Virus record (IMG/VR): IMGVR_UViG_3300044699_000054
Location: 64,001-120,168 of that record
Origin: a virus
Taxonomy: Duplodnaviria > Heunggongvirae > Uroviricota > Caudoviricetes
Length of the DNA: 56,168 nucleotides
Direction: 5' to 3' (one strand)
A program made the translations under genes and the position numbers. The notes below the pieces were generated by a model, which ran no database searches, was not told the DNA's origin, and saw nothing but the letters and a program-made list of their open reading frames with translations. Shown piece by piece: positions 9,535 to 27,133 of the stretch. How positions within the stretch are numbered: position 1 is the stretch's first letter; each line of letters opens with the position of its first letter.

Positions 9535-9563
9535 TGGACAGCATCCCCACATAGGGGTACTGT
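9535..9563 (+). promoter_or_regulatory. SigA-type promoter TGGACA-17-TACTGT, giving a probably leaderless mRNA
   Basis: Hexamers and spacing; GTG start 6 nt downstream. Confidence 0.55.
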
Positions 9564-9569
9564 GCTCTT

Positions 9570-9974
9570 GTGGCCTACAATCCCGCCCTCAAGGTCTCTA
9601 TGGCAGAGGCCATGACCGTCGCCTGTCCGAAGTGCTACGTGCCTGCACATAAGAGATGTGTGTACTTGCTGGGAGCTAAGAACGGCTCTGTGGCCATGGG
9701 TGGTCCTATGGACCGATGTCACCCAGCTCGGGCACGGGCTGCGCGGCGACTCCAGTACGAGAGCCTGAGCCACAGATCAGTACGCAGGGCACTTCAGGAG
9801 TTCGATCGCCGGGAGTACGAGGCTCTACGGGAATGGTTGAATCTTCATGGATCTCTGTTCAAGCACACCTGCTGCTGGCGCAGGGTTGACAGACCCCCAT
9901 GTACGGGTGCTACAGTGGAGCCTGCCCTTCAGTCGTTGGGGGACGGGAAGGGCGACAGGTGCAGCTGGGCATAG
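9570..9974 (+). CDS. Zinc-finger-like hypothetical protein (3' end uncertain)
   Basis: CPKC...C...CH motif. Confidence 0.5.
   Translation: MAYNPALKVSMAEAMTVACPKCYVPAHKRCVYLLGAKNGSVAMGGPMDRCHPARARAARRLQYESLSHRSVRRALQEFDRREYEALREWLNLHGSLFKHTCCWRRVDRPPCTGATVEPALQSLGDGKGDRCSWA
9886..9916 (+). promoter_or_regulatory. Promoter TTGACA-19-TACAGT with CCCCCATGTACGGG in the spacer
   Basis: Read directly from sequence. Confidence 0.55.
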
Positions 9975-10058
9975 GAGCCGGGAGACGGTCCCGGACCACG
10001 TAATCACCATCCGTATCCTGAACACCGCTGCACCTACTACGGCACTGGTACGAGGTAC

Positions 10059-10087
10059 TTGACAACACCCCCATGTAGGGGTAGATT
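10059..10087 (+). promoter_or_regulatory. Promoter TTGACA-17-TAGATT with CCCCCATGTAGGGG in the spacer
   Basis: Read directly from sequence. Confidence 0.7.
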
Positions 10088-10089
10088 CG

Positions 10090-10310
10090 AAAGTGGTTGG
10101 TCCACGACGCCGGGAACATGGTTGTCAGGGATGAGCTACGGGATTTACAGTCAGCTGACGAACCCGCCCTGCTGACCCAGAAGGAGGAGACAGTGTTGAC
10201 GACGCAATCACACGCTGTCTCCTCCTTCTGCCTCAAAGGCAATCTCTTGCTGACCACCGATCGTCAGCCGAAGCACGAGCAGGCGACAGTGGATGGCTAA
10301 CTAGATCTTG
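10090..10310 (+). ncRNA. Candidate ~220-nt structured RNA
   Basis: Own promoter and terminator; perfect 16-bp stem 10178-10193/10215-10230. Confidence 0.45.
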
Positions 10311-10321
10311 AGCAGAGATCC

Positions 10322-10358
10322 AAGAGCCGTCCTGAGGTCTACAGGATGGCTCTTTTCT
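10322..10358 (+). terminator. Intrinsic terminator
   Basis: AAGAGCCGTCCTG-loop-CAGGATGGCTCTT followed by TT. Confidence 0.7.
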
Positions 10359-10370
10359 AACTACACATAT

Positions 10371-10438
10371 GGGTGTGATGCAGCGGCAAGCATGGCTGTC
10401 TCCAAAGCAGCTCACGAGGGTTCGAGTCCTTCCACCCA
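10371..10438 (+). tRNA. trnW: tRNA-Trp(CCA)
   Basis: Loop CTCCAAA, GGTTCGAGTCC; acceptor slightly short. Confidence 0.75.
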
Positions 10439-10529
10439 TGCGCAGTTACCGGGGAACCGGTGACCAGTTCTTTGTCAACTCCACAGTGGACAGCATAAGG
10501 TCCCGGCATATAGCGGCCTGGGACCTCAT

Positions 10530-10602
10530 CGGATGCGAGGCAGATGGTTAGCCACTTGGCCTGGGACCAAGCATAAGCAGAGTTCGATTCTCTGGCATCC
10601 GA
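10530..10602 (+). tRNA. trnP: tRNA-Pro(TGG)
   Basis: CTTGG-CCTGGGA-CCAAG. Confidence 0.85.
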
Positions 10603-10679
10603 CGAGTAGTAGCAGTACAGAGAGTTGCCGCATTGGCTGCTACAGGCAGGGGTGAGCGACCCTTCTCATTTCGCTCAAT

Positions 10680-10753
10680 GGGCTTGTGGCGCAGGCTGGT
10701 AGCGCGTCTGTCTGGCAGACAGAAGGTCCCCGGTTCGAATCCGGGTAGGTCCA
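10680..10753 (+). tRNA. trnA: tRNA-Ala(GGC)
   Basis: TCTGT-CTGGCAG-ACAGA, G3:U70. Confidence 0.9.
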
Positions 10754-10754
10754 C

Positions 10755-10829
10755 GGGGCTGTAGTTTAATCCGGTTAAAACGCCTGGTTCGCAGCCAAGC
10801 AGAACCGAGTTCGAGGCTCGGTGGCTCCA
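10755..10829 (+). tRNA. trnA: tRNA-Ala(CGC)
   Basis: Loop TTCGCAG, G3:U70. Confidence 0.8.
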
Positions 10830-10831
10830 CT

Positions 10832-10902
10832 TGGGGGTGGTCTGATCCAAGGCACTGGACATAGGTCCAGAGACGCGGGTACCAAATCCCGTCCCCCATC
10901 CA
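10832..10902 (+). tRNA. Atypical tRNA-like gene (CTGGAC-ATAG-GTCCAG anticodon arm, non-canonical T-loop, encoded CCA)
   Basis: Cloverleaf-like with Gln-type T1-A72 ends; no 7-nt anticodon loop. Confidence 0.5.
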
Positions 10903-10903
10903 A

Positions 10904-10975
10904 GCCCTTTTAGCTTAGTTGGTAGAGCAGCGGTCTGAAGAATCGCGAGCCCCGGTTCGATTCCGGGTAAGGGCA
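10904..10975 (+). tRNA. trnF: tRNA-Phe(GAA)
   Basis: Loop CTGAAGA. Confidence 0.9.
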
Positions 10976-10976
10976 C

Positions 10977-11049
10977 GCACCGTTGGAGTAATGGTCATCT
11001 CACCTGCCTCTCAAGCAGGAGATTATCGGTTCGAGTCCGATACGGCGCA
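10977..11049 (+). tRNA. trnE: tRNA-Glu(CTC)
   Basis: CCTGC-CTCTCAA-GCAGG. Confidence 0.9.
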
Positions 11050-11129
11050 CTCCCGCAAAGGAGGAGAAAGTGAATGGAGCTGATGACTTCCCTTAGATAG
11101 CCGGAGACGCCGGCTACAGATAGGGAATC

Positions 11130-11528
11130 ATGTCCAGGACAGACAAGGATGCACCGTGGTGGGTGCAAGCTGAGTACTGGGAGCCACTTCACGCAGTCAG
11201 CTGCGAGTTCTACATCGGATACTTCCGTCGTGAGTACCGAGCATGTAACTTGCCACCTGCTCCAATCCGCCAGGACCAGAGCCACCCACGGAGCTACATC
11301 CGTACCGCTCCCTGCAGTTGGGTAGCGGTAATGCCACACAAGGATCGGTATAGGTACACTCGACCACCGACGCGGGAAGAGAAGCATCTGGGCTGGTGGG
11401 GACCAGACCGGCGCAAGGTTCGAGATCTCATGATCAGTGCCAAGCAGCTTTACCGTGGTGGCAATGATCCCGATGTCATCACCCCTCGCCACCATCGTCA
11501 TGCATCAAATTGCGGTTGGTGGGATTAG
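11130..11528 (+). CDS. Hypothetical protein (N-terminus MSRTD shared with 14958-15188)
   Basis: ORF with RBS between tRNAs. Confidence 0.6.
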   Translation: MSRTDKDAPWWVQAEYWEPLHAVSCEFYIGYFRREYRACNLPPAPIRQDQSHPRSYIRTAPCSWVAVMPHKDRYRYTRPPTREEKHLGWWGPDRRKVRDLMISAKQLYRGGNDPDVITPRHHRHASNCGWWD

Positions 11529-11676
11529 CGGGGCCTGATCCCAGGCCTGCGTGCCAGCCACGCATCAGAAGTCACTGGTACCAGTGACAGGGATAAAGCA
11601 GTACAGCCCTGGAAAAGGCTCATCTTTCCCAAGCGCCCTTGGCAGTAGATGGTCTGCCCAGAAGCTGTGCTGCGAT

Positions 11677-11747
11677 GCCGGTGAGATGTAATGGTTGCAT
11701 CCCTGCCTTCCAAGCAGATCGAGCGGGTTCGATTCCCGTCGCCGGTT
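11677..11747 (+). tRNA. trnG: tRNA-Gly(TCC)
   Basis: Loop CTTCCAA. Confidence 0.85.
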
Positions 11748-11752
11748 CTCGA

Positions 11753-11823
11753 TCAGGTGTCGGCTAACGGTAGGCCGCCGGATTTTGGCTCCGGCTATTG
11801 AGGTTCGAATCCTTGCACCTGAG
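11753..11823 (+). tRNA. trnQ: tRNA-Gln(TTG)
   Basis: CCGGA-TTTTGGC-TCCGG. Confidence 0.9.
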
Positions 11824-11827
11824 CAAA

Positions 11828-11900
11828 GCCGCTCTATCCCAACGGTAGAGGAACTGGCTTCAAACACCAGTCAGTCACAGTTCGAGTCTGTGGGGCGGCA
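11828..11900 (+). tRNA. trnL: tRNA-Leu(CAA), short variable loop
   Basis: Loop TTCAAAC by canonical numbering; C31-A39 mismatch. Confidence 0.7.
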
Positions 11901-11907
11901 CGTGAAA

Positions 11908-12105
11908 ATGGATAAGGGTCCACTCGAATACCTCCGTGCCTTGGCTTCTGGTGATCCAGAACGGATCCAGGAAGCCTTAGCATTTCAGCGGGAGAGCTTC
12001 CGGGCTAAGTTCGGCTGCTACCCAGAAGAACTAAAGGAGTGCACCTGTGGAGGAGAAACCACGTGCACCTGTCCTGGTTGGGATGAGGGGGAGCATGAAA
12101 CGTAG
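11908..12105 (+). CDS. Hypothetical protein
   Basis: ORF fills the gap after a tRNA. Confidence 0.5.
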   Translation: MDKGPLEYLRALASGDPERIQEALAFQRESFRAKFGCYPEELKECTCGGETTCTCPGWDEGEHET

Positions 12106-12280
12106 GTTGTACTTCATCAACTGTGACAGCTGTAGCGCCAGTACCAAGACTCATCCGGACGAGAACTTGACAGTCCGCCAAGCCAGGGAACTGGCTAAGG
12201 AACTTGGTTACACAGTGACCCAGGATCATCGGGATCTGTGCGCCAAGTGCACGAAGAAGGAAGCCAACACACGTAAGTAA
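12095..12280 (+). CDS. Small CxxC...CxxC protein
   Basis: GGGGGAG RBS; CDSC/CAKC. Confidence 0.55.
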   Translation: MKRRLYFINCDSCSASTKTHPDENLTVRQARELAKELGYTVTQDHRDLCAKCTKKEANTRK

Positions 12281-12286
12281 TCACCG

Positions 12287-12357
12287 GCCGATGTAGCTCA
12301 ACGGTGGAGCACGCGCTTGGTATGCGCGAGGAGACAGTTCGATCCTGTCCTTCGGCT
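12287..12357 (+). tRNA. trnT: tRNA-Thr(GGT)
   Basis: CGCGC-TTGGTAT-GCGCG. Confidence 0.85.
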
Positions 12358-12361
12358 CTCT

Positions 12362-12432
12362 GCATCCGTGGTGTAGGGGTTGCACGGAACCTTGCCAAGG
12401 TTCAAGAGCCAGATCGTCTCTGGTCGGATGCT
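12362..12432 (+). tRNA. trnG: tRNA-Gly(GCC), T-loop ATCGTCT
   Basis: GAACC-TTGCCAA-GGTTC. Confidence 0.8.
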
Positions 12433-12467
12433 CGTCACCTACGAGCCCATGAAAGGGGGCTGACTAA

Positions 12468-12923
12468 ATGCAAGGAGTACTGGTTCTGAATGCTGACCTT
12501 GGGCCATTGCACACGGTCAGCCTCCGTCACGCGATTCGGATGATCTGTCGTGAAGTGGCAGAGGTCCATGAAGCGGAGCCCGACATACGGTATGCCATCT
12601 TCGGTGGTATGCCCAAGATCGTGAAGCTGGTTCGGTACATCGTCACCAAGTGGCGGTACACGTCCGGACCTGCCTGGTCCCGAGTGGGAGTGCTTCGCCG
12701 GGACAATTACCTATGTGGCTACTGCGGCCGTACGGGCACCACAGTTGACCACGTGACACCGGTCTCTCGCGGTGGTAAGAACCGCTGGGAGAACACCGTC
12801 GCCTCTTGCGATGACTGTAACCAGCGCAAGGGTGACCGTGTGCCTGCGGAAGCGGGGATGCGGCTACAGATCAAGCCCTGGGCACCAACGTGGGCGACAG
12901 TAGCAGATCATCGTAGGCGGTAA
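12468..12923 (+). CDS. HNH endonuclease
   Basis: RDNYLCGYCG..TVDHVTPVSRGG..WENTVASCDDCNQRKG. Confidence 0.9.
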   Translation: MQGVLVLNADLGPLHTVSLRHAIRMICREVAEVHEAEPDIRYAIFGGMPKIVKLVRYIVTKWRYTSGPAWSRVGVLRRDNYLCGYCGRTGTTVDHVTPVSRGGKNRWENTVASCDDCNQRKGDRVPAEAGMRLQIKPWAPTWATVADHRRR

Positions 12924-12933
12924 TAGCCTGTAC

Positions 12934-12967
12934 GTGGACCAGCTCTTCCCCCGTGGAGCTGGTCCAC
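12934..12967. terminator. Hairpin between convergent genes
   Basis: GTGGACCAGCTC/GAGCTGGTCCAC 12-bp stem. Confidence 0.6.
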
Positions 12968-12984
12968 CCAGAATGGCTACCTGC

Positions 12985-13194
12985 TTAATCGTCGGATGAC
13001 GATAATGGAGGCACGCGACTGGTGTTGTTGTCTTGACGTAGCTCTTCCTTTAGCTCTTCGATCTTGGCGAGCATTACGTCTCTTTGTGAATTAACAATGG
13101 TGTGAACCTTGCGGGTCTGAATGGCTCCGTAAGCCGCGATAATAGCCACAATGCCCGTGGCTACAGCACTGATGATCTGGACCGTCTCGCTCAT
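12985..13194 (-). CDS. Small membrane/coiled-coil protein, antisense to the tRNA array
   Basis: N-terminal TM segment then heptads. Confidence 0.55.
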   Translation of the reverse strand: MSETVQIISAVATGIVAIIAAYGAIQTRKVHTIVNSQRDVMLAKIEELKEELRQDNNTSRVPPLSSSDD

Positions 13195-13238
13195 AGATCA
13201 AGTATTACTGAACAATTCCATTTAAGCTACGAAGACTT

Positions 13239-13309
13239 TCCCGATTCGTCTAACGGTAGGACACCCGGCTCTGGACCGGGCAATCTAGGTTCGAATCCTG
13301 GTTCGGGAG
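13239..13309 (+). tRNA. trnQ: tRNA-Gln(CTG)
   Basis: CCCGG-CTCTGGA-CCGGG. Confidence 0.9.
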
Positions 13310-13376
13310 CGGCGGCAGGGGGCTCGTCATTTCGCGAATGACTGAACCTGCGCGCGGGTGCGCCTCCTGTCACTGA

Positions 13377-13455
13377 GGGCCTGGAATGGTGTTCGACAAG
13401 GGTAAAGCCGCATGACGGAGGCCCTTGGACCCGAGTTCGATTCTCGGCAGGTCCA
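13377..13455 (+). ncRNA. ssrA: Mini-tmRNA: tRNA-like domain only, no mRNA-like domain
   Basis: 5' GGGCCTG-GAATGGTGTTCGAC, P2 AAGGG/CCCTT, 3' GGAC-CCGAGTTCGATTCTCGG-CAGGTCCA; G3:U70; no D-stem or anticodon. Confidence 0.8.
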
Positions 13456-13456
13456 C

Positions 13457-13530
13457 GCCGGCTTAGCTCAGTTGGTCAGAGCGGCTTCCTTGTAAGAAGA
13501 AGGTCGGGAGTTCGAATCTTCCAGTCGGCT
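13457..13530 (+). tRNA. trnT: tRNA-Thr(TGT)
   Basis: Loop CTTGTAA. Confidence 0.85.
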
Positions 13531-13534
13531 CGTT

Positions 13535-13608
13535 GCCTGAGTGATGGAACTGGCATACATACTGGACTTAAAATCCGGGTTCTGCGGGTTCGACTCCCGC
13601 CTTGGGCA
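13535..13608 (+). tRNA. trnL: tRNA-Leu(TAA), short variable loop
   Basis: CTGGA-CTTAAAA-TCCGG. Confidence 0.85.
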
Positions 13609-13617
13609 CGTAGCAAT

Positions 13618-13690
13618 GCGGTTGTAGCTCAGTGGTTAGAGCACCGGCCCGTCAAGCCGGGGGTCGCGGGTTCGAGTCCCGTCATCCGCG
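13618..13690 (+). tRNA. trnD: tRNA-Asp(GTC)
   Basis: CCGGC-CCGTCAA-GCCGG (C at position 33). Confidence 0.85.
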
Positions 13691-13691
13691 C

Positions 13692-13970
13692 GTGATACCT
13701 CCATGTTTTATATGTGAGAAGAAGGTGGAGTCAGTGTTTCCAGACCCACCTGATTACGTCTACAACCAGCCGTACAAAGCCACTGTGTTCATGTCTCACG
13801 GCCACTACGGCAGCACCGTATTTGACCCGGTCATCGGGAACCGGCACCTGGAGATAAACATCTGTGACGAGTGCCTGCTTGAGAGAAAGGATCGGGTACT
13901 GCACGTCAGACCTCATCCTCCGGCTGAGCAGGAATACGATGTTCGAGTATGGGATCCGGAGAACGACTGA
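13692..13970 (+). CDS. Hypothetical protein with CxxC motifs
   Basis: ORF; start moved downstream of the tRNA. Confidence 0.55.
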   Translation: MIPPCFICEKKVESVFPDPPDYVYNQPYKATVFMSHGHYGSTVFDPVIGNRHLEINICDECLLERKDRVLHVRPHPPAEQEYDVRVWDPEND

Positions 13971-14158
13971 TGTTGGTTCAAGTAGACCTACAGGCTGGTA
14001 ACCGATTCCTGACTTGTTGGGTAGAGCCCAAAGTCAAGGTTGGCAACGTCATCACCTTGAAGAATCATGAACAGCCAAGGCTCCAGTGGCGAGTACTTCG
14101 AGTTGGTGAACTACAGGAAGCCGCTAGGATAAATCGCGGTTGGCACAACAACATTTAG
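13970..14158 (+). CDS. Hypothetical protein
   Basis: Stop/start overlap with the previous gene. Confidence 0.55.
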   Translation: MLVQVDLQAGNRFLTCWVEPKVKVGNVITLKNHEQPRLQWRVLRVGELQEAARINRGWHNNI

Positions 14159-14246
14159 GTGGAATACCCAAGTGGTCTACGGGACCGTCCTGCTAAGACG
14201 GAGGCTGGCGAAAGTTGGCCCCTGGGTTCGAATCCCAGTTCCACCG
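14158..14246 (+). tRNA. trnS: tRNA-Ser(GCT)
   Basis: Loop CTGCTAA, long variable arm. Confidence 0.9.
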
Positions 14247-14251
14247 CGCAC

Positions 14252-14323
14252 GCCCTCATAGCTCAGCGGAAGAGCTTCGGTCTACGGAACCGGAAGTCGG
14301 GAGTTCGAATCTCTCTGGGGGCG
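14252..14323 (+). tRNA. trnR: tRNA-Arg(ACG)
   Basis: Loop CTACGGA. Confidence 0.9.
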
Positions 14324-14327
14324 CTGA

Positions 14328-14402
14328 GGGGGTGTAACTCAGCCCGGTCAGAGTTCCGACCTGATGAGTCGGCGGTCGAAGGTTCAAATCCTTCCGCCCC
14401 CA
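14328..14402 (+). tRNA. trnI: tRNA-Ile(GAT)
   Basis: CCGAC-CTGATGA-GTCGG. Confidence 0.9.
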
Positions 14403-14406
14403 CAAT

Positions 14407-14478
14407 GCCCGTATAGCTCAACGGATGAGCACTTCGCTACGAACGAAGAGGATGCTGGTTCGAATCCAGTTGCGGGCT
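14407..14478 (+). tRNA. trnR: tRNA-Arg(ACG), second copy
   Basis: CTTCG-CTACGAA-CGAAG. Confidence 0.85.
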
Positions 14479-14523
14479 CGTAAGGCACCTGCTATCGAAT
14501 CCAGCACGTAACGCTGGTACAGG

Positions 14524-14886
14524 ATGATGAAGTACGGATGGACCAGGCACACCGTTTACCATCTGAGTCGTGAGCAACATGAGCGTAGAACTAGCTATGC
14601 CATTGAGCTATGGAAACAACCATTGCATCGTTGGCTAATTGCCAAGTTCTATCACTGGTACTCGTGGAAAATTCACAAAGTGCCAGGGTTCAAGAAGCTG
14701 GAAAAGTGGCTCTGGAAGCGGTACGAGGATCACCATGATGGAGATGAGCTGTTCCTCTACATTCCCATCAGCAACCGCCAGGACTTGCGCTGCTACGACT
14801 TATGCCACAAAAGGCAAACAGTCCTAGCACGACTGGAGCTGACCAAGGAAGACTTCGATGCCATCGGACATGATGATGGAGAGTGA
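14524..14886 (+). CDS. Hypothetical protein
   Basis: 120-aa ORF. Confidence 0.6.
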   Translation: MMKYGWTRHTVYHLSREQHERRTSYAIELWKQPLHRWLIAKFYHWYSWKIHKVPGFKKLEKWLWKRYEDHHDGDELFLYIPISNRQDLRCYDLCHKRQTVLARLELTKEDFDAIGHDDGE

Positions 14887-14957
14887 TCACGATGACCGTT
14901 AACCGGTGCTGATCTCAGCGCACGAGGCGTTGAGCGGCCGAGGGACGAGGTCGTCAC

Positions 14958-15188
14958 ATGTCCAGGACAGATGTCCATCTCCCGTACCGGGTCAAGGAAC
15001 AGGACCCGTACTGGGAACGTGAAGGTCGCTACCGCAACGTCTACTGCGGTTGTGAGCTATGTACCGGTCGCTATAACCGGCGCATGAATCGGCGCCGGGA
15101 GCGGCATGCGGTAAAGCAGTCACTTAGGTCCGGCGACACGGATCCGGTTATGGCTTTCCGGTACCGGTATTGGTTTCCTAATTACTGA
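14958..15188 (+). CDS. Hypothetical protein (MSRTD family)
   Basis: GAGG RBS; CGCELC. Confidence 0.55.
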   Translation: MSRTDVHLPYRVKEQDPYWEREGRYRNVYCGCELCTGRYNRRMNRRRERHAVKQSLRSGDTDPVMAFRYRYWFPNY

Positions 15189-15199
15189 TGTAAGAGGTT

Positions 15200-15272
15200 G
15201 CCAGTCAAGCACACATGGTTGGTGCGCCCGTCTCGTAAGCGGGAGGGCTCGGTTCGATTCCGAGGATTGGCT
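15200..15272 (+). tRNA. trnT: tRNA-Thr(CGT)
   Basis: CCCGT-CTCGTAA-GCGGG. Confidence 0.85.
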
Positions 15273-15341
15273 CTTAGGGGGCCGGCGCTGGCATGTCCGG
15301 ACCGTTGTGGTTGGGAGCTAGCCACTCCCACCCCCGTTTTC

Positions 15342-15410
15342 GGGGTGTGCACTGGTGTGCAGGTTTGCCTTGCAAGCAGACCCTGATCGGTTCGATACCG
15401 ATACGCTCCA
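15342..15410 (+). tRNA. trnA: tRNA-Ala(TGC)
   Basis: Loop CTTGCAA, G3:U70. Confidence 0.8.
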
Positions 15411-15415
15411 CTCCC

Positions 15416-15559
15416 TTAACCAAGAAGATGGGTTAAGCCAGCAAACACAAGGCCTAGGGCCACAAGATTGACGGCAGCCATACGGCCAGCAAGGAAACTG
15501 AATACCGCTAGCGCCCAACAGATCACAGCTAAGATCCATAAAAAGGTATCTACACTCAC
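15416..15559 (-). CDS. 47-aa two-TM membrane peptide (below the ORF-track cutoff)
   Basis: Hand translation MSVDTFLWILAVICWALAVFSFLAGRMAAVNLVALGLVFAGLTHLLG*. Confidence 0.55.
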   Translation of the reverse strand: MSVDTFLWILAVICWALAVFSFLAGRMAAVNLVALGLVFAGLTHLLG

Positions 15560-15598
15560 GTGCTACAGAATAGCCCCGGAACGTTGATTAATAAACAT

Positions 15599-15671
15599 GC
15601 CGACGCACGCCGATGGCCGAGCGGCCTGACTTAGGATCAGGTGTCTTAGGGTTCGAATCCCTACGTCGGTA
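15599..15671 (+). tRNA. trnL: tRNA-Leu(TAG), short variable loop
   Basis: CCTGA-CTTAGGA-TCAGG. Confidence 0.8.
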
Positions 15672-15675
15672 CGAA

Positions 15676-16748: not shown

Positions 16749-17178
16749 GCGGGTCACGGCCGCCGTCGAGAAGCGGCTGGCGGTGGCGCAGGCGGCCACA
16801 CCGGGGCCGTGGGAGCACGTCGACTACCACGGTGGTCCCTATCCTGATTGGACTTTCAAGGGCTGCGGGTCCGTTGTCACCATGGCGCCAGACCTGGCAG
16901 GCGGGGACATCGCGGCCCCGAACGGCGACCTGTACCCACGCTCGGGTTACAGCCCGAGGGACGATATGGCCTTCATCGCCGCCAACGACCCGGCCCGCAT
17001 CATCCGCGACTGCCGGCGGGACCTGAAAGTACTCGGGCGGCACCACACCTACGGCCTGCAACTGGCGCCGGAGTTCCGCAAAGGCTGCGTGCACTGCCAG
17101 CAGGGCGGCGGCGTGTGCGCCGAGATCCGCGACCTTGCCGAGGCCTACGAGATTGGGGTGGACGATGGCGACGGATGA
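16735..17178 (+). CDS. DUF6221-like protein
   Basis: AATPGPW...FIAANDPARIIRDC..DLKVL..H...C..C..IRDLAEAY pattern (recalled family). Confidence 0.6.
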   Translation: MTLHERVTAAVEKRLAVAQAATPGPWEHVDYHGGPYPDWTFKGCGSVVTMAPDLAGGDIAAPNGDLYPRSGYSPRDDMAFIAANDPARIIRDCRRDLKVLGRHHTYGLQLAPEFRKGCVHCQQGGGVCAEIRDLAEAYEIGVDDGDG

Positions 17179-17521
17179 GGCGTACGAAGCAGCGGCAGTT
17201 GCTTTCAGGCTTGGCGATCCACTCGCACCACCATGGCCAGGAACGGCGCTTTGGGAACGTATCAGTATCGTTGTTGACGCCGTATGGGACCTAGCTATTG
17301 TCGAAAGTCGCCAGGAGGCGTTGAAGATTGCCGCTCGTGGCTTGCTGGCTGATGCGAAAGCCCACGCTGCCAAATGGAATACCGAGAAATGGGACCAAGG
17401 CTTCGTGGCCGGTATGGAGCACGCGGCTCACACGATAGCCAACAGCGTCGATCGCATTGATCCTGACCAGGACGTGTGGAATTACCTAGACGGTGAGGTT
17501 AATGATGCAGCTGCATCGTGA
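17165..17521 (+). CDS. Hypothetical protein
   Basis: Coupled ORF. Confidence 0.55.
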   Translation: MATDEAYEAAAVAFRLGDPLAPPWPGTALWERISIVVDAVWDLAIVESRQEALKIAARGLLADAKAHAAKWNTEKWDQGFVAGMEHAAHTIANSVDRIDPDQDVWNYLDGEVNDAAAS

Positions 17522-17681
17522 AGAAGCACAGCCAGAGAATTCTCCTTTCCTGAAGGAGATCCTGACGAAAGTTCAGGAAGGTACTTGGAGGTACTACGCA
17601 GGCGGAATCCTCATAGCGGTTCTATTTGTGTTGCTCATCATCGCAGGGGCAGTTTCCTTTATCGTGTTCCTGACGCTGTAA
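17502..17681 (+). CDS. Small membrane protein
   Basis: C-terminal TM segment. Confidence 0.55.
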   Translation: MMQLHREEAQPENSPFLKEILTKVQEGTWRYYAGGILIAVLFVLLIIAGAVSFIVFLTL

Positions 17682-17700
17682 CTAGTCTCCTGGAGGAGCT

Positions 17701-17937
17701 GTGTACTTACTGATTCATAGCAGTGAAGATGGGGAGCCAATAACCCCACTTAATGAGGCTGAACTCGCACAAGTTCTTCGTAAGCCAGAAGAATGGAGCA
17801 TCAAGACGTTTAAAGACTCCAGTTTCTTTCACGCCAACGCCAATCAAACTAACTACTGGGAGGAAGGAACCGCAGTCTTACTCAAGGTTGAGGTACTGAT
17901 TCCGACTCCAGTAACAACAGCCTGGGCGATCAAATAG
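17701..17937 (+). CDS. Hypothetical protein
   Basis: GGAGG RBS. Confidence 0.6.
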   Translation: MYLLIHSSEDGEPITPLNEAELAQVLRKPEEWSIKTFKDSSFFHANANQTNYWEEGTAVLLKVEVLIPTPVTTAWAIK

Positions 17938-18908
17938 CATCAAGGAAGATAGCGTCCGCATGAACGGGTTTGGCTAGGAGGCTGGCCAACGATCCTGTAC
18001 AAAGTACATATGGACACGCTGATCTACCGGGAACGGCTACGACCCACTGATCATCGACTTGGTCGGCATGTGAATCATGACTCACGTTCTCGACTGTATC
18101 CGTTTAACACATCTGGACTGACGTTGGTCAGCGCACGTCACCCACGCCATATCCCGGTTTTCGATCAGGGCAATTTAGGCAGCTGCACTGGTAACGCGGG
18201 TATTGGCTGTCTAGGCACCGGGATATTCTTCGATGGCACTGGTGGCTATTACAGTCTTGATGAGAGTGGCGCGGTAGCACTGTACGGCGATGCCACCAAA
18301 GCTGACCCATATGAAGGTGAGTACCCGCCCACTGATACCGGTAGTGATGGATTGACCATTGCCAAGGTCCTTACGGCGGCTGGTGAGATCGCTGGTTACC
18401 AGCACACGTTCACCTTGATCGACGCACTCAAAGCGTTGACAGTCACCCCATTCATCACTGGGGTCAATTGGTTCGACGGCATGTTTGAACCAGCAACAGA
18501 TGGCCGGGTTACGGCAACAGGAAATCTGGCCGGTGGCCATGAATTCATTGCGGATCAGCTCGACGTGGAAAGCGAGCGGATCTGGTTCACAAATTCTTGG
18601 GGAGCAGGCTGGGGAGTCAACGGTCGGTTCTATATGAACTGGAGCGACTATGGCTCGTTACTGGCCCAGCAAGGCGATGTGACGATCTTCGTACCTGTTA
18701 CAGCTCCGGCACCAGAGCCAATCCCCGTGGAACCTGACGCTGATGACATTGCTCTAGCTGCGGCAACCAGGGACTGGTCAAAGGCGCCACACATAGGATC
18801 AAATGCCATAGCTGCCAAGGCAGTGCGAACTTGGCTACTCAAGAAGAAGCTGTATTACGAAAGCTGACCAGCCTGAATAATCAAGTAGCACCAAGGAAGA
18901 TAGCGCCC
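17930..18908 (+). repeat. 28-bp imperfect direct repeat (17930-17957 and 18881-18908) flanking the peptidase gene
   Basis: TCAA[A/G]TAGCA[T/C]CAAGGAAGATAGCG[T/C]CC, 25/28 identical. Confidence 0.75.
18010..18867 (+). CDS. Papain-like cysteine peptidase (C1 family)
   Basis: DQGNLGSCTGNA (Gln/Cys), GGHE (His), NSWGAGWG (Asn). Confidence 0.9.
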   Translation: MDTLIYRERLRPTDHRLGRHVNHDSRSRLYPFNTSGLTLVSARHPRHIPVFDQGNLGSCTGNAGIGCLGTGIFFDGTGGYYSLDESGAVALYGDATKADPYEGEYPPTDTGSDGLTIAKVLTAAGEIAGYQHTFTLIDALKALTVTPFITGVNWFDGMFEPATDGRVTATGNLAGGHEFIADQLDVESERIWFTNSWGAGWGVNGRFYMNWSDYGSLLAQQGDVTIFVPVTAPAPEPIPVEPDADDIALAAATRDWSKAPHIGSNAIAAKAVRTWLLKKKLYYES

Positions 18909-18977
18909 AGTGGTGGGCGACCGGTCTTGAAAACCGGGCCAGGGTTACACCTGAGGGTTCGACTCCTTTATCTTCCG
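18895..18977 (+). tRNA. trnS: tRNA-Ser(TGA)
   Basis: CCGGT-CTTGAAA-ACCGG, long variable arm. Confidence 0.9.
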
Positions 18978-18978
18978 C

Positions 18979-19206
18979 GTGACAACTAAGCACGCACTTG
19001 CGCCATGGACAAAGGAGCAAGTAACAAATCTGAAGCATTTTCAATACAGCGGCTTTCACCCGTTCACTTGTCCTGGAGGTATTACTCTTACAGCCACCGA
19101 GCAAGGCTGGATTTGCGGACATTGCTCCTACTACCAAAACTGGGCACACGAGTTCATGACCAAATACAGAACTCCTCTTGATGTGCCCGAAGACATGCCC
19201 CGTTAG
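18979..19206 (+). CDS. Hypothetical protein (HPFTC...WICxxC)
   Basis: ORF between tRNAs. Confidence 0.6.
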   Translation: MTTKHALAPWTKEQVTNLKHFQYSGFHPFTCPGGITLTATEQGWICGHCSYYQNWAHEFMTKYRTPLDVPEDMPR

Positions 19207-19267
19207 CTGAGTGGTTTAGCTCTAGACTCTTAATCTGGAGAGGAAGGTTCGATTCCTTCACGGGGTA
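19197..19267 (+). tRNA. trnK: tRNA-Lys(CTT)
   Basis: Loop CTCTTAA. Confidence 0.9.
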
Positions 19268-19280
19268 CTTGTAAGACCTT

Positions 19281-19353
19281 GGGTCGTTGGTGAAACGGTT
19301 GATCACTCTGGGCTTTTACCCCTGAATTCCGGGTTCGAATCCCGGGCGGCCTA
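19281..19353 (+). tRNA. trnK: tRNA-Lys(TTT)
   Basis: Loop CTTTTAC. Confidence 0.8.
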
Positions 19354-19479
19354 CATGACAAAATGGCAGTCCTTCTTAGACTCATATGACCACTATCGTA
19401 GACACGTTGCCTTGTCCCCATTACACGCCCTGTACCGGGCGCTGTACTACGAGATCCGGCATCGTGAACCATGGAGTAA

Positions 19480-19551
19480 CCCGCGCTAGCTCAATGGAAG
19501 AGCAGCATCGTCCTAAGGTGAGGGTTCCGAGTTCGAATCTCGGGCGTGGGA
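19480..19551 (+). tRNA. trnR: tRNA-Arg(CCT)
   Basis: Loop GTCCTAA. Confidence 0.8.
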
Positions 19552-19553
19552 CT

Positions 19554-19626
19554 GCCTCTGTAGCTCAACGGAAGAGCCGTGGGTTTCTACCCCACGAGTG
19601 TGCGGGTTCGAATCCTGCCAGGGGCA
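19554..19626 (+). tRNA. trnR: tRNA-Arg(TCT)
   Basis: GTGGG-TTTCTAC-CCCAC. Confidence 0.9.
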
Positions 19627-19648
19627 CGTAATCGTGATACAGTGCTAC

Positions 19649-19722
19649 AGCGCGATAGAGCAGTTCGGTAGCTCGTCAGCCTCATAAGCTGAAGGTCCCT
19701 GGTTCAAATCCAGGTCGCGCCA
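19649..19722 (+). tRNA. trnfM: tRNA-Met(CAT), initiator-like
   Basis: A1xC72 mismatch, fMet-type D-arm AGAGCAGTTCGGTAGCTCG, loop CTCATAA. Confidence 0.85.
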
Positions 19723-19793
19723 CTAGAGATGCTGGGGGATTCTCTCCCTTAGAAGGTTCCTTAAACGATCAGTAGATGGCGCCCAGCAACCTT

Positions 19794-19865
19794 GCCCGTG
19801 TAGCTCAGCGGTAGAGCATCGTCTCGACATGGCGGTGGCCCCAGGTTCGAATCCTGGTGCGGGTA
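19794..19865 (+). tRNA. trnV: tRNA-Val(GAC)
   Basis: Loop TCGACAT (C at position 33). Confidence 0.8.
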
Positions 19866-19978
19866 CGCAGAGGAAACCAGTCCGGCTAGCTACCGGCTAG
19901 GCCCTTCTGAGGAACTGAAACGAGCACCCGGACCCTTCGTGGAGTCCGGGGCATGGTCCGGACCCGGTTCAGTTCTGC

Positions 19979-20050
19979 GGTCCCATCGTCTAGAGGTCAG
20001 GATCTAGCGCTTTCACCGCTAAGAGGAGAGTTCGATTCTCTCTGGGACTA
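19979..20050 (+). tRNA. trnE: tRNA-Glu(TTC)
   Basis: TAGCG-CTTTCAC-CGCTA. Confidence 0.9.
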
Positions 20051-20063
20051 CGCACATCTTCAT

Positions 20064-20135
20064 TCCCTCGTAGCTCAACGGAAGAGCAGACGGCTGTTAA
20101 CCGTAAGGTTGTTGGTTCGAATCCAGCCGGGGGAG
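20064..20135 (+). tRNA. trnN: tRNA-Asn(GTT)
   Basis: Loop CTGTTAA. Confidence 0.9.
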
Positions 20136-20136
20136 C

Positions 20137-20256
20137 ATGAGAAAACAAGACTGGAATCCGGATCGGTCGTTCCTTAGCGGCAGCATCGCTCTGTGGCTGT
20201 TAATCGTTGGACTGCCGTTGGTCGTGCTCATCGTCATATTGATCCTGATGTTTTAA
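20137..20256 (+). CDS. 39-aa single-TM peptide
   Basis: Hand translation MRKQDWNPDRSFLSGSIALWLLIVGLPLVVLIVILILMF*. Confidence 0.5.
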   Translation: MRKQDWNPDRSFLSGSIALWLLIVGLPLVVLIVILILMF

Positions 20257-20257
20257 T

Positions 20258-20332
20258 GCACCAGAGCCCATCCGGTAGGTGGGGTCTGCCTTATAAGCAG
20301 AACGTGGTTGGGTTCAACTCCCACCTGGTGCA
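20258..20332 (+). tRNA. trnI: tRNA-Ile(TAT)
   Basis: TCTGC-CTTATAA-GCAGA. Confidence 0.8.
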
Positions 20333-20391
20333 CGCACCCCGGGGATGTTGGTCCGAGTCCCCTGAAATGTTGGGTGTATCGGACCCCATAA

Positions 20392-20464
20392 GGACATGTG
20401 GCCAAGCGGCAAAGGCCCCGTCTTCACACGGCGGTAATCAGAGGTTCGAGTCCTCTCATGTCCA
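20392..20464 (+). tRNA. trnV: tRNA-Val(CAC)
   Basis: Loop TTCACAC. Confidence 0.85.
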
Positions 20465-20478
20465 CGTATAATGAACAT

Positions 20479-20552
20479 GGTGGCTATGGCGTACCGGCTG
20501 TGCGCGCTGGGTTGTGGTCCCAGAGGTCCGAGTTCGACCCTCGGTAGTCACC
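20479..20552 (+). tRNA. trnH: tRNA-His(GTG)
   Basis: CTGGG-TTGTGGT-CCCAG, G-1:C73. Confidence 0.9.
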
Positions 20553-20556
20553 CCAA

Positions 20557-20639
20557 GGGAGAGTTGGGCAGTTGGTTGGCCCAGTGGACTGTAAATCCGC
20601 CCCGGAAACGGCTTGCAGGTTCGAATCCTGTCTCTCCCA
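20557..20639 (+). tRNA. trnY: tRNA-Tyr(GTA)
   Basis: Loop CTGTAAA, long variable arm. Confidence 0.9.
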
Positions 20640-20652
20640 CGTGGAATATCAA

Positions 20653-20910
20653 ATGTTTCTGAACCAAGGTGAATCTGTTGTTCATGTTCCCCCTGGCCCT
20701 AGGATCATGGTCCGGTCCACGGACCCTCCAGGAACCTTCTGGGTGAACGGAAACCAGGTCCAATTACCTCTTGATGCCGAACCTACTTCCTGGACGCCGA
20801 TCCCGGAGACTGGAGGATGGGAGGCACGCTTAAAGAACGTTAAACACGATCCTGATAAATGGTGGGATCAATGGAACATGGAACTGTGGATTAGGACCCC
20901 GCCCTCGTAG
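20653..20910 (+). CDS. Hypothetical protein
   Basis: ORF between tRNAs. Confidence 0.5.
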   Translation: MFLNQGESVVHVPPGPRIMVRSTDPPGTFWVNGNQVQLPLDAEPTSWTPIPETGGWEARLKNVKHDPDKWWDQWNMELWIRTPPS

Positions 20911-20972
20911 CTCAGCGGAAGAGTACTGGCCTCCGAAGCCAGATGTCGCTGGTTCGAATCCAGTCGAGGGTA
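20901..20972 (+). tRNA. trnR: tRNA-Arg(CCG)
   Basis: CTGGC-CTCCGAA-GCCAG. Confidence 0.9.
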
Positions 20973-20976
20973 CGGT

Positions 20977-21053
20977 GGCCTGCGCTTGTAGCTGGTGCTG
21001 CACCATGTCTGCAAAACATGGAATACAAAGGAGTTCGATTCTCCCGTGGGCTT
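20977..21053 (+). tRNA. trnC: tRNA-Cys(GCA)
   Basis: CATGT-CTGCAAA-ACATG, U73. Confidence 0.8.
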
Positions 21054-21054
21054 C

Positions 21055-21381
21055 GTGGAAGATGATCGATCACCATTAGCTGAAGCGACACACCTTCGAG
21101 AGGTTGCCGAAAAGATAATCAAAAGGGAAGAGCAGCGAGATCCGGAGAACACGACAATAGGACTGGTGCTCAATTCCGTAGTACGAGCCTTGATGATGCA
21201 AGCTGAGGCCGACGCTTTGGAGCGTGGGTACTACCGAGGTCGCGCTATGGCAGCATATGACGTGCGCATGGGTCTTGATGAGATGGATGGGAATGGTTCC
21301 GTTCATTACGACTCTGATACTGCTCCACCACCTGAATGGATCGTACGTAAAGCAGAGAAGCTAGCCCGAGGGTGGTACTAA
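21055..21381 (+). CDS. Hypothetical protein
   Basis: ORF after tRNA-Cys. Confidence 0.55.
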   Translation: MEDDRSPLAEATHLREVAEKIIKREEQRDPENTTIGLVLNSVVRALMMQAEADALERGYYRGRAMAAYDVRMGLDEMDGNGSVHYDSDTAPPPEWIVRKAEKLARGWY

Positions 21382-21402
21382 AGCTGTCCACTGTGGAGAC
21401 AA

Positions 21403-21476
21403 GGCGAGCGGACGCTGGGCTCCAGCTGCCCCTCATAAGGGCGGATTGCCGGGATCGTCACCCGGGCTCGCTACCA
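21403..21476 (+). tRNA. trnM: tRNA-Met(CAT), T-loop ATCGTCA, encoded CCA
   Basis: TGCCC-CTCATAA-GGGCG. Confidence 0.75.
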
Positions 21477-21490
21477 AGGTGCGGCAAGAG

Positions 21491-21520
21491 TTGCTGTACC
21501 CGTACATGGGGGTGTAGGAT
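21491..21520 (+). promoter_or_regulatory. Promoter TTGCTG-18-TAGGAT with CCCGTACATGGGGG in the spacer; leaderless start at 21527
   Basis: Read directly from sequence. Confidence 0.6.
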
Positions 21521-21526
21521 CTCATC

Positions 21527-22264
21527 ATGACTCTGAGACTGAATCAGGTAATCGCCCTGGAGAAGGGTGTCAAGACCACTGCTGAGAGCGGTCTCACGCA
21601 GGCGTATCACCAGCTGGAGAAGGTCCAGCTCTTTCATGGCCAGGAACGGTCCTACCGGCCAAAGGATGATGACGGTGACCAGTACCCAGCGGAGCCAGTA
21701 AAGCTCCAGCTGCGCGTGCCTGATGTCCTGGCCGACACTGCTGAGCAGTTGACCAGACTGTTCGACGTGACGGCTACCAAGGACGCCGGAAACCAGCTTG
21801 CAGCCGCTGACATCGAGGTCGACGGTGTAACGATCGTGTCCGCCGTACCAGTGACTACGTTGCTGGCGCTGGAGAAGAAGCTGGTCGACCTGGCCACCTT
21901 CGTATCCAAGCTGCCGGTTACCGACCAAGCGGAGAACTGGAACTGGGATGCTGACAGCCTGTGCTGGAAGGCCGATACCGCACAGACCATCAAGACCAAG
22001 AAGATTCCGCGCAACCACGTCAAGGCGCCAGCCACCGACAAGCACCCAGCTCAGGTGGAGGTCTTCACCGAGGATGTGCTTATCGGTACTTGGTCTACCA
22101 CCAAGCTCTCGGGTGCCGTGTCCGCAGCGCAGAAGCGTAGCCTGTTGGAGCGAGTCAAGAAGCTCCAGCAAGCTGTGAAGGTTGCTCGGGAAAAGGCCAA
22201 CATGACTGAGGCTGCCGATGTTCACATTGGCGCCCAGATCTTCAACTACCTGCAGTGGACCTAG
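21527..22264 (+). CDS. Conserved uncharacterised helical protein (recalled as DUF7873-like, unverified)
   Basis: LNQVIALEKGVK...RSYRPKDDDGDQYPAE...KDAGNQLAAADIEVDG..VPVTTLLALEK. Confidence 0.7.
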   Translation: MTLRLNQVIALEKGVKTTAESGLTQAYHQLEKVQLFHGQERSYRPKDDDGDQYPAEPVKLQLRVPDVLADTAEQLTRLFDVTATKDAGNQLAAADIEVDGVTIVSAVPVTTLLALEKKLVDLATFVSKLPVTDQAENWNWDADSLCWKADTAQTIKTKKIPRNHVKAPATDKHPAQVEVFTEDVLIGTWSTTKLSGAVSAAQKRSLLERVKKLQQAVKVAREKANMTEAADVHIGAQIFNYLQWT

Positions 22265-22443
22265 GTCTGCTGCAGGTACCAAGACTCCCGTTCTGAGGAA
22301 CGGGTTGGCACAATCTCAATATGAGGCATTGCTCCTGTGCCCGAAATCAGGTGCTCACTTAACTTCAGCATGTGAGAGCCGTTCGCAGCGGCCTCAAGAC
22401 TCTTGCCACAACCTCAGCATTGCCGTAGACCACTGCATCAAAT

Positions 22444-22553
22444 GGTCATGATCACAAAACCAGAAGGCCCGTGTTCAAATCACGGCGGCGCCTCCAACCA
22501 TGGCGCTGTAGCTCAGCGGCAGAGCGTCTGGTCCGAAGATCTTAGACATGACC
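22444..22553 (+). ncRNA. Circularly permuted tRNA-like RNA (YrlA/Y-RNA-like module)
   Basis: T-arm CCGTG-TTCAAAT-CACGG, acceptor CGGCGCC/GGCGCTG closed by a loop, D-arm GCTC-AGCGGCA-GAGC, closing stems CCAGA/TCTGG and GGTCATG/CATGACC. Confidence 0.75.
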
Positions 22554-22624
22554 TTAAACGGCGGTAGTGGTACAGGATGACGGCACCCCGACATTGATTC
22601 GCTTGTGATCGAATCCAAATCGGT

Positions 22625-22666
22625 TGGTCCCCGGCCTCAAGGAGAGGAGGCCGGGGACCTCTTTTT
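22625..22666 (+). terminator. Intrinsic terminator
   Basis: GGTCCCCGGCCTC...GAGGCCGGGGACC followed by TCTTTTT. Confidence 0.75.
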
Positions 22667-22692
22667 ACGGGTATCATGAACTGCATGACGGT

Positions 22693-23041
22693 ATGAAGAG
22701 AACGGATCCTGTCGGTCACCATCCACGACTGCGAGGTCCAACACTTCCGCTCCGGCGGCAAGGGTGGCCAGAACCAGAACAAGCGGGATACCGGGACCAG
22801 GGTCATCCACCACCCGTCAGGCGCCCGAGGCGAATCCCGCGAGGAACGAAGCCAGCTCCAGAACAAGCGAGCGGCCTTCCTTCGAATGATCAACAGTCCG
22901 AAGTTCCAGCTGTGGCTGGCCATCGAGACCGGGCGCCTGGCTGTGATCCAGTCTGAGCTTGATCAAGTCCACGTTCCACCTGAGGAACTGTTGATCGAGA
23001 CTCGCCACGGCGGGCGCTGGGTACCAGCACCGCATCTGTAA
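22693..23041 (+). CDS. Class-1 release-factor-like peptidyl-tRNA hydrolase (GGQ domain); missed by the ORF track because of a frameshift in the first codons
   Basis: Hand translation ..ERILSVTIHDCEVQHFRSGGKGGQNQNKRDTGTRVIHHPSGARGESREERSQLQNKRAAFLRM.. Confidence 0.85.
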
Positions 23042-27125: not shown

Positions 27126-27133
27126 CGCCAGAA

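Follow-up and report, generated by a model that had tools for sequence, protein, structure and literature searches.

Large phages carry sets of transfer RNA (tRNA) genes, and some also encode transfer-messenger RNA (tmRNA; gene ssrA) and release factor-like proteins. The region considered here is from an IMG/VR phage record (IMGVR_UViG_3300044699_000054) of 120,168 bp, rated complete by CheckV; the window analysed is its bases 64001-120168, i.e. 56,168 nucleotides, and all positions given for this phage are window positions. Within positions 9535-23041, a near-complete tRNA set is accompanied by three co-oriented elements: a mini-tmRNA reduced to the tRNA-like domain (TLD), a Y-like RNA containing a permuted tRNA-like module, and a gene encoding a GGQ motif protein of the RF-1 type. 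Described systems offer a comparison for each. One phage, DS6A, has been listed with a "TLD only" ssrA, and a TLD-only-like molecule strongly inhibits tmRNA, perhaps via titration of SmpB (Hudson, Lau and Williams 2014, PMC4131195). Y RNAs of the YrlA class are bound by Ro60/Rsr (RF02553; Chen et al. 2014, PMC4201824). The original prediction had joined the three elements and the tRNAs into a single pathway, in which cleaved tRNAs would be replaced, stalled ribosomes diverted from host tagging, and the peptides released by a phage factor. The analysis presented here points to another reading, i.e. that the region is probably the tRNA region of a large actinobacteriophage holding several independently mobile, translation-related modules, and not one pathway.

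The evidence that carries this reading is distributional. Independent occurrence of the components across genomes had been named in advance as the observation that would count against a single pathway. The comparison was run and the components were found to be largely independent, with separate distributions across phage genomes, so that the proposal of one pathway for the three rescue elements is largely not borne out. No gene for a DUF7873 protein, which is the constant neighbour of the Y-like RNA, lies within 10 kb of the RF-1 gene at any of 80 loci, and an RF-1 gene is present in 7 of 20 near-complete phages with DUF7873. A TLD-only ssrA occurs in 1 of 24 near-complete RF-1 phages; reciprocally, an RF-1 gene occurs in 2 of 35 records with TLD-only ssrA (2 of the 10 that are near-complete), and none was found in DS6A or Streptomyces phage Alone3, both of which have a mini-tmRNA. 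No tRNA lies within 3 kb of 22 of the 35 TLD-only ssrA genes. Because each part occurs without the others, the parts are read as separate modules. The only association that recurs is that of the GGQ gene with a tRNA array, at least 10 tRNAs being present within 10 kb at 24 of 80 IMG/VR GGQ loci; a full tagged tmRNA is present at 9 of the 80, 8 of these being among the 24 tRNA-rich ones. Thus, the plausible role of each part in translation and the placement of GGQ genes inside tRNA arrays stand, whereas the single pathway is not supported.

Some considerations pull the other way. The contigs compared are of uneven completeness and the RNA models were built from single sequences, so that absences are soft, and the co-occurrence figures are raw counts without a background rate. 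The recurrence of the GGQ gene in tRNA arrays, in some cases with a full tmRNA, also means that the extra tRNAs, the ssrA and the release factor may be linked in function to some degree.

The TLD-only ssrA (13377-13456, plus strand, 80 nucleotides) adjoins tRNA-Thr(tgt), its 3' end running directly into that gene. The Rfam tmRNA model (RF00023; gathering score 47) matches 13377-13458 with 47.1 bits. The alignment extends from model position 1 to 374 but skips the 308 positions in the middle, in place of which the window has 15-19 nucleotides. As read from the sequence, the RNA has a 7-bp acceptor stem with G3:U70, the discriminator A73, a tmRNA-type D loop, a T arm, and a P2 helix of 6-7 bp with a tiny inner CCG/CGG hairpin (CCG-N4/5-CGG). 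Hence, the tRNA-like domain of a standard one-piece tmRNA is present; the mRNA-like domain with its resume codon and tag frame is absent from the element, as are pseudoknots, and ARAGORN makes no tmRNA call.

Searches with nhmmer and blastn using the mini-tmRNA and the permuted RNA returned almost nothing, and structure models were required. A model of the mini-tmRNA made from a single sequence (R1) gave scores of 62 bits for DS6A, 51 for locus L033 and 49 for Alone3. When IMG/VR was scanned with a loose pattern and the candidates were scored with R1, the first 80 candidate loci yielded 35 more full-length TLD-only copies with 35-70 bits (34 of the 35 at 45 or above). In the alignment of this family, 99% of cells are paired; over the 35 copies no change is seen in G1-C72, G2-C71, G3:U70, G7-C66 or the inner hairpin, whereas P2 and the T arm show free covariation. 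G3:U70 is present in all 35 and in the window, DS6A, Alone3 and L033. Since this identity pair is strictly kept across the family, charging with alanine is proposed and is probable for the window's RNA. No SmpB gene was found in the phage genome, which implies that the mini-tmRNA must act through the SmpB of the host. There it may either titrate SmpB and so block host tagging, or accept the stalled peptide without adding a degradation tag. Judged by these conserved features, TLD-only ssrA is a widespread and strictly alanine-type phage RNA, more than a DS6A oddity; the size of the family, i.e. at least 35 IMG/VR copies and the unannotated copy of Alone3, is not stated in PMC4131195.

The Alone3 copy (L084:6987-7064; OR725492.1 18155-18232), which has G3:U70, lies in a tRNA island that also contains genes for a Ro-like protein, a peptidase and an RNA ligase; just upstream of it (L084:6853-6985) there is a tRNA-like sequence in which a long insertion replaces the anticodon arm. 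A 76-nucleotide tRNA-like RNA without an anticodon arm was seen at two other loci (L059:9909-9984 and L061:9909-9984; 38 bits with R1). It has G3:C70, hence no alanine identity, and ends 10 nucleotides before a predicted GGQ start (9995), on a 156-kb phage contig with 34 tRNAs.

The Y-like RNA is part of a different module. Upstream of it is a gene (21527-22264, plus strand) for a 245-residue DUF7873 protein (PF25283, 1e-96), homologues of which fall into more than 3,296 clusters, all unnamed; sequence identity is 55-59% between the protein of this phage and those of Streptomyces, Nocardia, Chloroflexia, Myxococcales and others. The AlphaFold 2 model of the protein has a pLDDT (predicted local distance difference test score) of 90, and no convincing match to a solved fold was obtained, Foldseek and VIA-align returning weak helical-bundle/Cas7-like hits (E at least 0.018, Z at most 8.1). 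The conserved core of the associated RNA (22436-22576, plus strand, defined by its fold and by the model R2) contains the permuted tRNA-like module (22459-22532, plus strand, from the minimum-free-energy fold), the exact motif GGUCCGA being located at 22530-22536 on the same strand. A strong intrinsic terminator with a 13-bp stem and a T run (22626-22668, plus strand) closes the unit, and the transcript probably extends from about 22270 to this terminator. The module is arranged in the order 3' strand of the anticodon stem, variable loop, T arm, acceptor stem, D arm, 5' strand of the anticodon stem, and its 7-bp acceptor stem is closed by a 9-nucleotide loop starting UCCA.

R2 is a covariance model of 141 positions made from the window's RNA only, with matches counted at E<0.001. 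It finds a match downstream of DUF7873 at 41 of 80 bacterial and 30 of 52 IMG/VR loci, on the same strand, 150-350 nucleotides after the DUF7873 stop and mostly across the full 141 positions. In 54 aligned copies, 93.4% of cells pair, 30 of 32 pairs have changes on both sides, and the covariation score is 0.79 vs about 0.1 with the partners slid. Because R2 matches recur 3' of DUF7873 in bacteria and phages alike, the Y-like RNA is assigned to the DUF7873 module and is, on the comparative evidence, its downstream partner; the window's RNA has the downstream position, the permuted module and the CUUAAACG tail of this class. The DUF7873 protein and its RNA of about 400 nucleotides would thus form a self-contained protein-plus-tRNA-mimic unit with its own terminator, found in many bacteria and phages. 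Bacterial chromosomes without a tRNA array commonly carry the RNA. The RNA is absent from Rfam 15, and the unit was not found in the literature searched. In the Streptomyces genomes sampled, the genes neighbouring DUF7873 are unrelated housekeeping genes (chaplin, aminotransferase, HxlR and sigma factor genes), and clustering of open reading frames (ORFs) from bacterial DUF7873 neighbourhoods gave no usable conserved neighbour, spurious high-GC frames dominating the clusters.

Two other identities for the RNA at 22436-22576 were considered and rejected. A permuted two-piece tmRNA is contradicted by a C:G pair at 3:70, a true tRNA D arm and the lack of a tag frame, and the Rfam tmRNA_permuted model gives no match. 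A split or permuted tRNA matured by ligation is contradicted by a joined "anticodon loop" without U33, by a helix that extends past the stem, and by the absence of RtcB from the phage.

Permuted modules of related type were also seen in other arrangements. At some DUF7873 loci they occur in tandem (L142:3296-3403 and 3448-3553; also L126, L091, L171 and L188); in the window only the second of the tandem modules is recognisable, 22265-22435 holding other hairpins. In cluster M-like Mycobacterium abscessus prophages, a circularly permuted tRNA-like module of about 75 nucleotides follows the 3' end of a full tmRNA by 1-3 nucleotides (L018:5816-5900, L019:5562-5629, L024:4963-5045 and L029:5647-5718; also L020 and L022). 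Its acceptor stem, closed by a loop of 3-8 nucleotides, is flanked by a T arm and a D arm, and both of its termini are in the anticodon stem; comparison of the prophages shows covariation in the acceptor and T stems, and neither DUF7873 nor Ro60 is present. A further module, with an acceptor loop starting UCCAA, lies about 350 nucleotides upstream of a GGQ gene (L077:9546-9636) in a 215-kb phage with 32 tRNAs and a full tmRNA, and with no DUF7873 within 10 kb.

The third element, the GGQ frame (22697-23041, plus strand), has 114 codons followed by TAA and consists of RF-1 domain 3 only. It is matched by Pfam RF-1 (3.3e-13; 50 bits, cut-off 35) and by phrog_3122 (5.5e-36), and its sequence and AlphaFold 2 model match domain 3 of RF1, RF2, mtRF1 and PrfH over about 90 residues. 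The protein lacks codon-recognition domains, and its C-terminal 45 residues are acidic or hydrophobic and are modelled as helices and a β-hairpin. Sequence and model thus predict a protein that consists solely of domain 3, the catalytic domain, of a class I release factor. Homologues are present in 242 cultured phage records, mostly of mycobacteriophages, where they are annotated "RF-1 peptide chain release factor"; in Bxz1-type phages the gene adjoins polymerase and recombinase genes. Neither RtcB nor Pth was found in the genome of the phage studied here.

The GGQ frame of the original prediction is real, with one correction: from the TGA at 22694-22696, which is in frame, to the GGQ motif, no ATG, GTG or TTG is present. 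The TGA directly precedes the residues R-E-R-I-L-S-V, and an ATG three codons upstream is in the same frame, giving the leader ATG ACG GTA TGA (M-T-V-stop; 22685-22696, plus strand). A -10-like hexamer, TATCAT (22672-22677, plus strand), is located directly after the upstream terminator and 7 nucleotides before the ATG at 22685, and would be part of a leaderless promoter of the GGQ gene. The same organisation, i.e. a start codon, 2-6 further codons and an in-frame TGA with no canonical start thereafter, is found in 11 distinct sequences including the window. Their leaders are of 3-7 codons and open with ATG or GTG: M-T-V-stop in the window and L006, M-T-I-stop in L004, M-T-A-stop in L219, M-T-H-stop in L011, M-R-A-stop in L010, M-S-N-stop in L008 and M-S-T-stop in L047 (the last being about 50% identical to the window), with longer forms in L007 (M-G-R-E-stop), L218 (M-T-E-R-A-stop) and L017 (7 codons). 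The stop is TGA in 11 of 11, TGA being also the commonest stop of this phage (33 of 67 long ORFs). In 10 of the 11 homologues a TANNNT hexamer begins 12-14 nucleotides before the in-frame start, leaving a gap of 6-8 nucleotides, and no Shine-Dalgarno sequence is evident at the GGQ start. Such a spacing from -10 element to start codon is expected of leaderless actinobacterial transcripts, which start at the start codon itself. Downstream of the TGA, the frames are open for 110-127 codons, and pairwise ratios of nonsynonymous to synonymous substitution (dN/dS) are 0.03-0.45 with dS about 1, which implies genes that are translated, as opposed to wrecks. Where sister sequences have an ordinary start (e.g. 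M-R-E-R-I-L or M-T-R-E-R-I-L), the ATG is at, or at most 3 codons upstream of, the position of the TGA.

The GGQ mRNA is thus probably leaderless, starting at the ATG at 22685, with UGA as codon 4 (codons 4-8 in relatives). With UGA in this position, the GGQ protein would be made only if the codon is decoded or bypassed; the preferred, predicted route is that a near-cognate tRNA reads through it, perhaps under the influence of RF2 activity. The UGA may act as a gate, either keeping the hydrolase at a low level or coupling its synthesis to weak RF2 termination. Other accounts of the UGA were rejected. No suppressor tRNA with a UCA anticodon was found in the whole phage genome, the two Rfam tRNA-Sec matches being tRNA-Ser(tga) and tRNA-Cys; there is likewise no convincing selenocysteine insertion sequence (inspected by eye only), so that selenocysteine or suppressor decoding is disfavoured. 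General reassignment of TGA does not fit with its use as a stop by about half of the long ORFs and with large genes that are intact under table 11, and a sequencing error or pseudogene does not fit with an arrangement kept in 11 sequences from different samples.

The principal alternative for this gene is that the GGQ frame is expressed without any decoding of UGA, either by a mini-ORF followed by reinitiation at a non-canonical codon such as the ATC or CTG of I-L, or from a second transcript beginning after the TGA. That the leaderless start and readthrough are deduced from sequence only, and that non-canonical initiation or reinitiation after a 3-codon leader would fit as well, tell against the preferred account, as do the lack of a suppressor tRNA in the phage, the occurrence of ATC CTG within 3-9 codons in most UGA-type genes, and the overlap of start and stop codons as NTGA in most of them. 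However, homologues with a normal ATG keep ATC CTG just as well, so that these codons carry no particular signal; between TGA and I-L, conservation is at the amino-acid level (R-E-R; G-A-E-P-G-A-R-R-R); and leaderless initiation normally requires a 5' ATG or GTG. Downstream initiation is hence regarded as possible, at perhaps one chance in a few. Far less credible, indeed very improbable, is that the extra elements are decaying remnants, i.e. a truncated ssrA and a GGQ pseudogene. Such decay might explain why the mini-tmRNA is not called by ARAGORN and why the GGQ frame, lacking a start, is missed by ORF finders, but the mini-tmRNA architecture is kept in at least 35 phages with compensatory changes, 11 diverged sequences keep the GGQ frame open at dN/dS values far below 1, and the arrangement of leader, UGA and -10 hexamer is itself conserved.

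A coordinated pathway can be formulated in more specific terms than those of the original prediction, with phage tRNAs replacing cleaved ones, an alanyl mini-tmRNA taking over stalled ribosomes with host SmpB and without addition of a degradation tag, and the GGQ protein hydrolysing the resulting peptidyl-TLD. The invariance of G3:U70 argues that charging matters, beyond SmpB titration, and, as the TLD has no resume codon, a peptidyl-RNA would remain for which a hydrolase is needed; TLD-only ssrA and GGQ gene do occur together in the window and in L033, and GGQ genes sit in tRNA arrays, some with tmRNA. Against this, TLD-only ssrA is found without a phage RF-1 gene in 8 of its 10 near-complete carriers as well as in DS6A and Alone3, and is missing from 23 of 24 near-complete RF-1 phages; release could be carried out by host ArfB or Pth, and the Y-like RNA is clearly part of another module. 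A pathway of this kind is consequently judged unlikely, and separate modules within a tRNA region remain the better account. Also unlikely, and speculative, is a proposal in which the GGQ protein is made from its leaderless mRNA only when the UGA at codon 4 escapes RF2. The gene would then sense a failure of termination or rescue and respond by switching on a stand-alone peptidyl-tRNA hydrolase. In phages with an alanyl TLD-only ssrA as well, the two would provide a tag-free rescue route that shields phage proteins from host ssrA tagging.

With respect to the tRNAs themselves, the predicted count was confirmed: ARAGORN identifies 40 tRNA genes, all on the plus strand, with 38 distinct anticodons serving all 20 amino acids. 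Of these, 39 form an array (10369-21476, plus strand; ARAGORN and Rfam tRNA matches) interspersed with small ORFs and an HNH endonuclease gene, and the 40th, tRNA-Val(tac) (27054-27126, plus strand; ARAGORN, and Rfam with 70 bits), is outside it; the remainder of the 120,168-bp genome contains no additional tRNA. Wobble included, nearly all sense codons are readable by this set, which gives the phage a near-complete decoding system of its own and may keep late translation going should the tRNAs of the host be cleaved or ill-suited. The three extra elements, i.e. tag-less ssrA, permuted tRNA-like RNA and GGQ frame, were likewise upheld as real, with support from Rfam, folding and Pfam/PHROG, respectively. 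A tRNA-Ile with the anticodon TAT was also observed at 20258-20333, with two CAT tRNAs nearby (19649 and 21403); TAT-anticodon tRNA-Ile is rare in bacteria, in which AUA is usually read by a lysidine-modified CAT tRNA.

The host is very probably an actinobacterium, as inferred because the portal resembles (about 35% identity) those of Actinoplanes and Arthrobacter phages. The genome has a G+C content of about 57% and, by profile matches, encodes a portal, a capsid/protease-type structural protein, a large terminase, a primase and a family A polymerase. At the DNA level no cultured phage is close, megablast of the island against cultured phages giving no match, as did tblastn of one large ORF of the structural region (1841-4051). 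Among the other genes of the region, the HNH endonuclease gene (12468-12923, plus strand; Pfam HNH_5, 2e-14, and PHROG HNH) has homologues in other tRNA islands, and a 285-residue protein (18010-18867, plus strand) is a PHROG 'peptidase' (phrog_16701, 2.6e-44) with no Pfam or NCBIfam match. A zinc-finger gene (Phage_zn_bind_8, Pfam 2.1e-06; 9570-9974, plus strand) lies at the left edge of the region. Directly after the GGQ gene, preceded by a promoter-like site (23061-23089), is a gene (23131-24195) matching DUF932 and the TIGR03299 'phage/plasmid-like protein' family (2.1e-43 and 3.6e-81).

The story of a single pathway loses support from the co-occurrence analysis, and the tRNA region evidently collects translation-related genes along with HNH endonucleases. 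Three things appear to be new or little known: that TLD-only ssrA forms so broad a family, that the GGQ gene can take a probably leaderless and UGA-gated form, and that a DUF7873 protein is paired with a tRNA-mimic RNA. Tag-free interference with trans-translation becomes a candidate general strategy of phages. A release-factor domain would be encoded in a conserved and previously unannotated way, with a leaderless start, a leader of 3-7 codons and an in-frame UGA; genes of this type are missed by gene callers, and the arrangement may provide a simple reporter for stop-codon recoding in actinobacteria. The phage is also added to the many carriers of the DUF7873 tRNA-mimic pair.

Each of these modules can be compared with described systems. 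The TLD-only ssrA of DS6A has the same architecture as that of the window, with an acceptor containing G3:U70, a tmRNA D loop, P2, the CCG/CGG hairpin and a T arm. In DS6A the gene is solitary, neither tRNA nor RF-1 gene accompanying it, whereas the window's copy is inside a tRNA array and abuts tRNA-Thr. Jakobid mitochondrial tmRNAs, which reportedly lost their mRNA-like region, are similar to the window's RNA in this respect.

Like YrlA, the DUF7873 RNA has the T arm, closed acceptor and D arm of a permuted tRNA-like module carried by a long stem, and its 7-bp acceptor is as in M. smegmatis YrlA, a substrate of RNase P. However, the YrlA Rfam model gives 21.6 bits for the window (a local match) and 28-41 for its relatives (end to end) vs a gathering score of 69. 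The Ro-binding motif of YrlA, taken as GNCGAAN0-1G or GGUCCGA, is near the 5' end; by contrast, the GGUCCGA of the window is 3' of the module, and relatives keep only GUCC or UCCG. YrlA adjoins Ro60/Rsr, and the constant neighbour of the DUF7873 RNA is instead DUF7873. No TROVE/Ro60 gene was found in the 120-kb genome, nor in 5 further phage records that contain related modules; among 35 bacterial genomes carrying DUF7873, 13 likewise lack any TROVE match.

The GGQ protein differs similarly from the rescue factors that share its domain. In ArfB the GGQ domain is accompanied by a basic C-terminal tail, by which an empty mRNA channel is probed; the window's protein has no such tail, and the NCBIfam ArfB model gives 22.4 bits vs a cut-off of 100, covering 32 residues only. 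PrfH has about 200 residues, including a decoding-centre domain, and RtcB as a neighbour, as opposed to 114 residues and no RtcB in the genome; TIGR03072 gives 44.8 bits vs a cut-off of about 166. The early in-frame UGA is shared with prfB, which needs a +1 shift, in contrast with the GGQ frame, which continues in the frame of the leader ATG.

The closest parallel to the region as a whole is with cluster M-type mycobacteriophages and M. abscessus prophages (e.g. prophiT49-2, OQ417962.1), in which, as in the window, there is a long, co-oriented and near-complete tRNA array with an embedded RF-1 gene (61% identical protein) and an HNH gene. The cluster M-type islands have a full tagged tmRNA (tag ANAHQSDYVLAA in L029) where the window has a TLD-only ssrA; RtcB and Pth, both missing from the present phage, adjoin RF-1; and the RF-1 genes examined (those of prophiT49-2 and of prophage loci L018-L024 and L029) have a normal GTG start, unlike the window's. 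There is no DUF7873 nearby, but the small permuted tRNA module is present right after the tmRNA. Of the island features of cluster M, the window thus has the tRNAs, an ssrA variant and RF-1, and lacks RtcB and Pth. The statement that the combination had not been described is therefore correct only in part, since tRNA set, tmRNA, RF-1, RtcB and Pth are already together in these mycobacteriophages; the combination of a tRNA set with ssrA and RF-1 is not new in kind, and is exemplified by cluster M.

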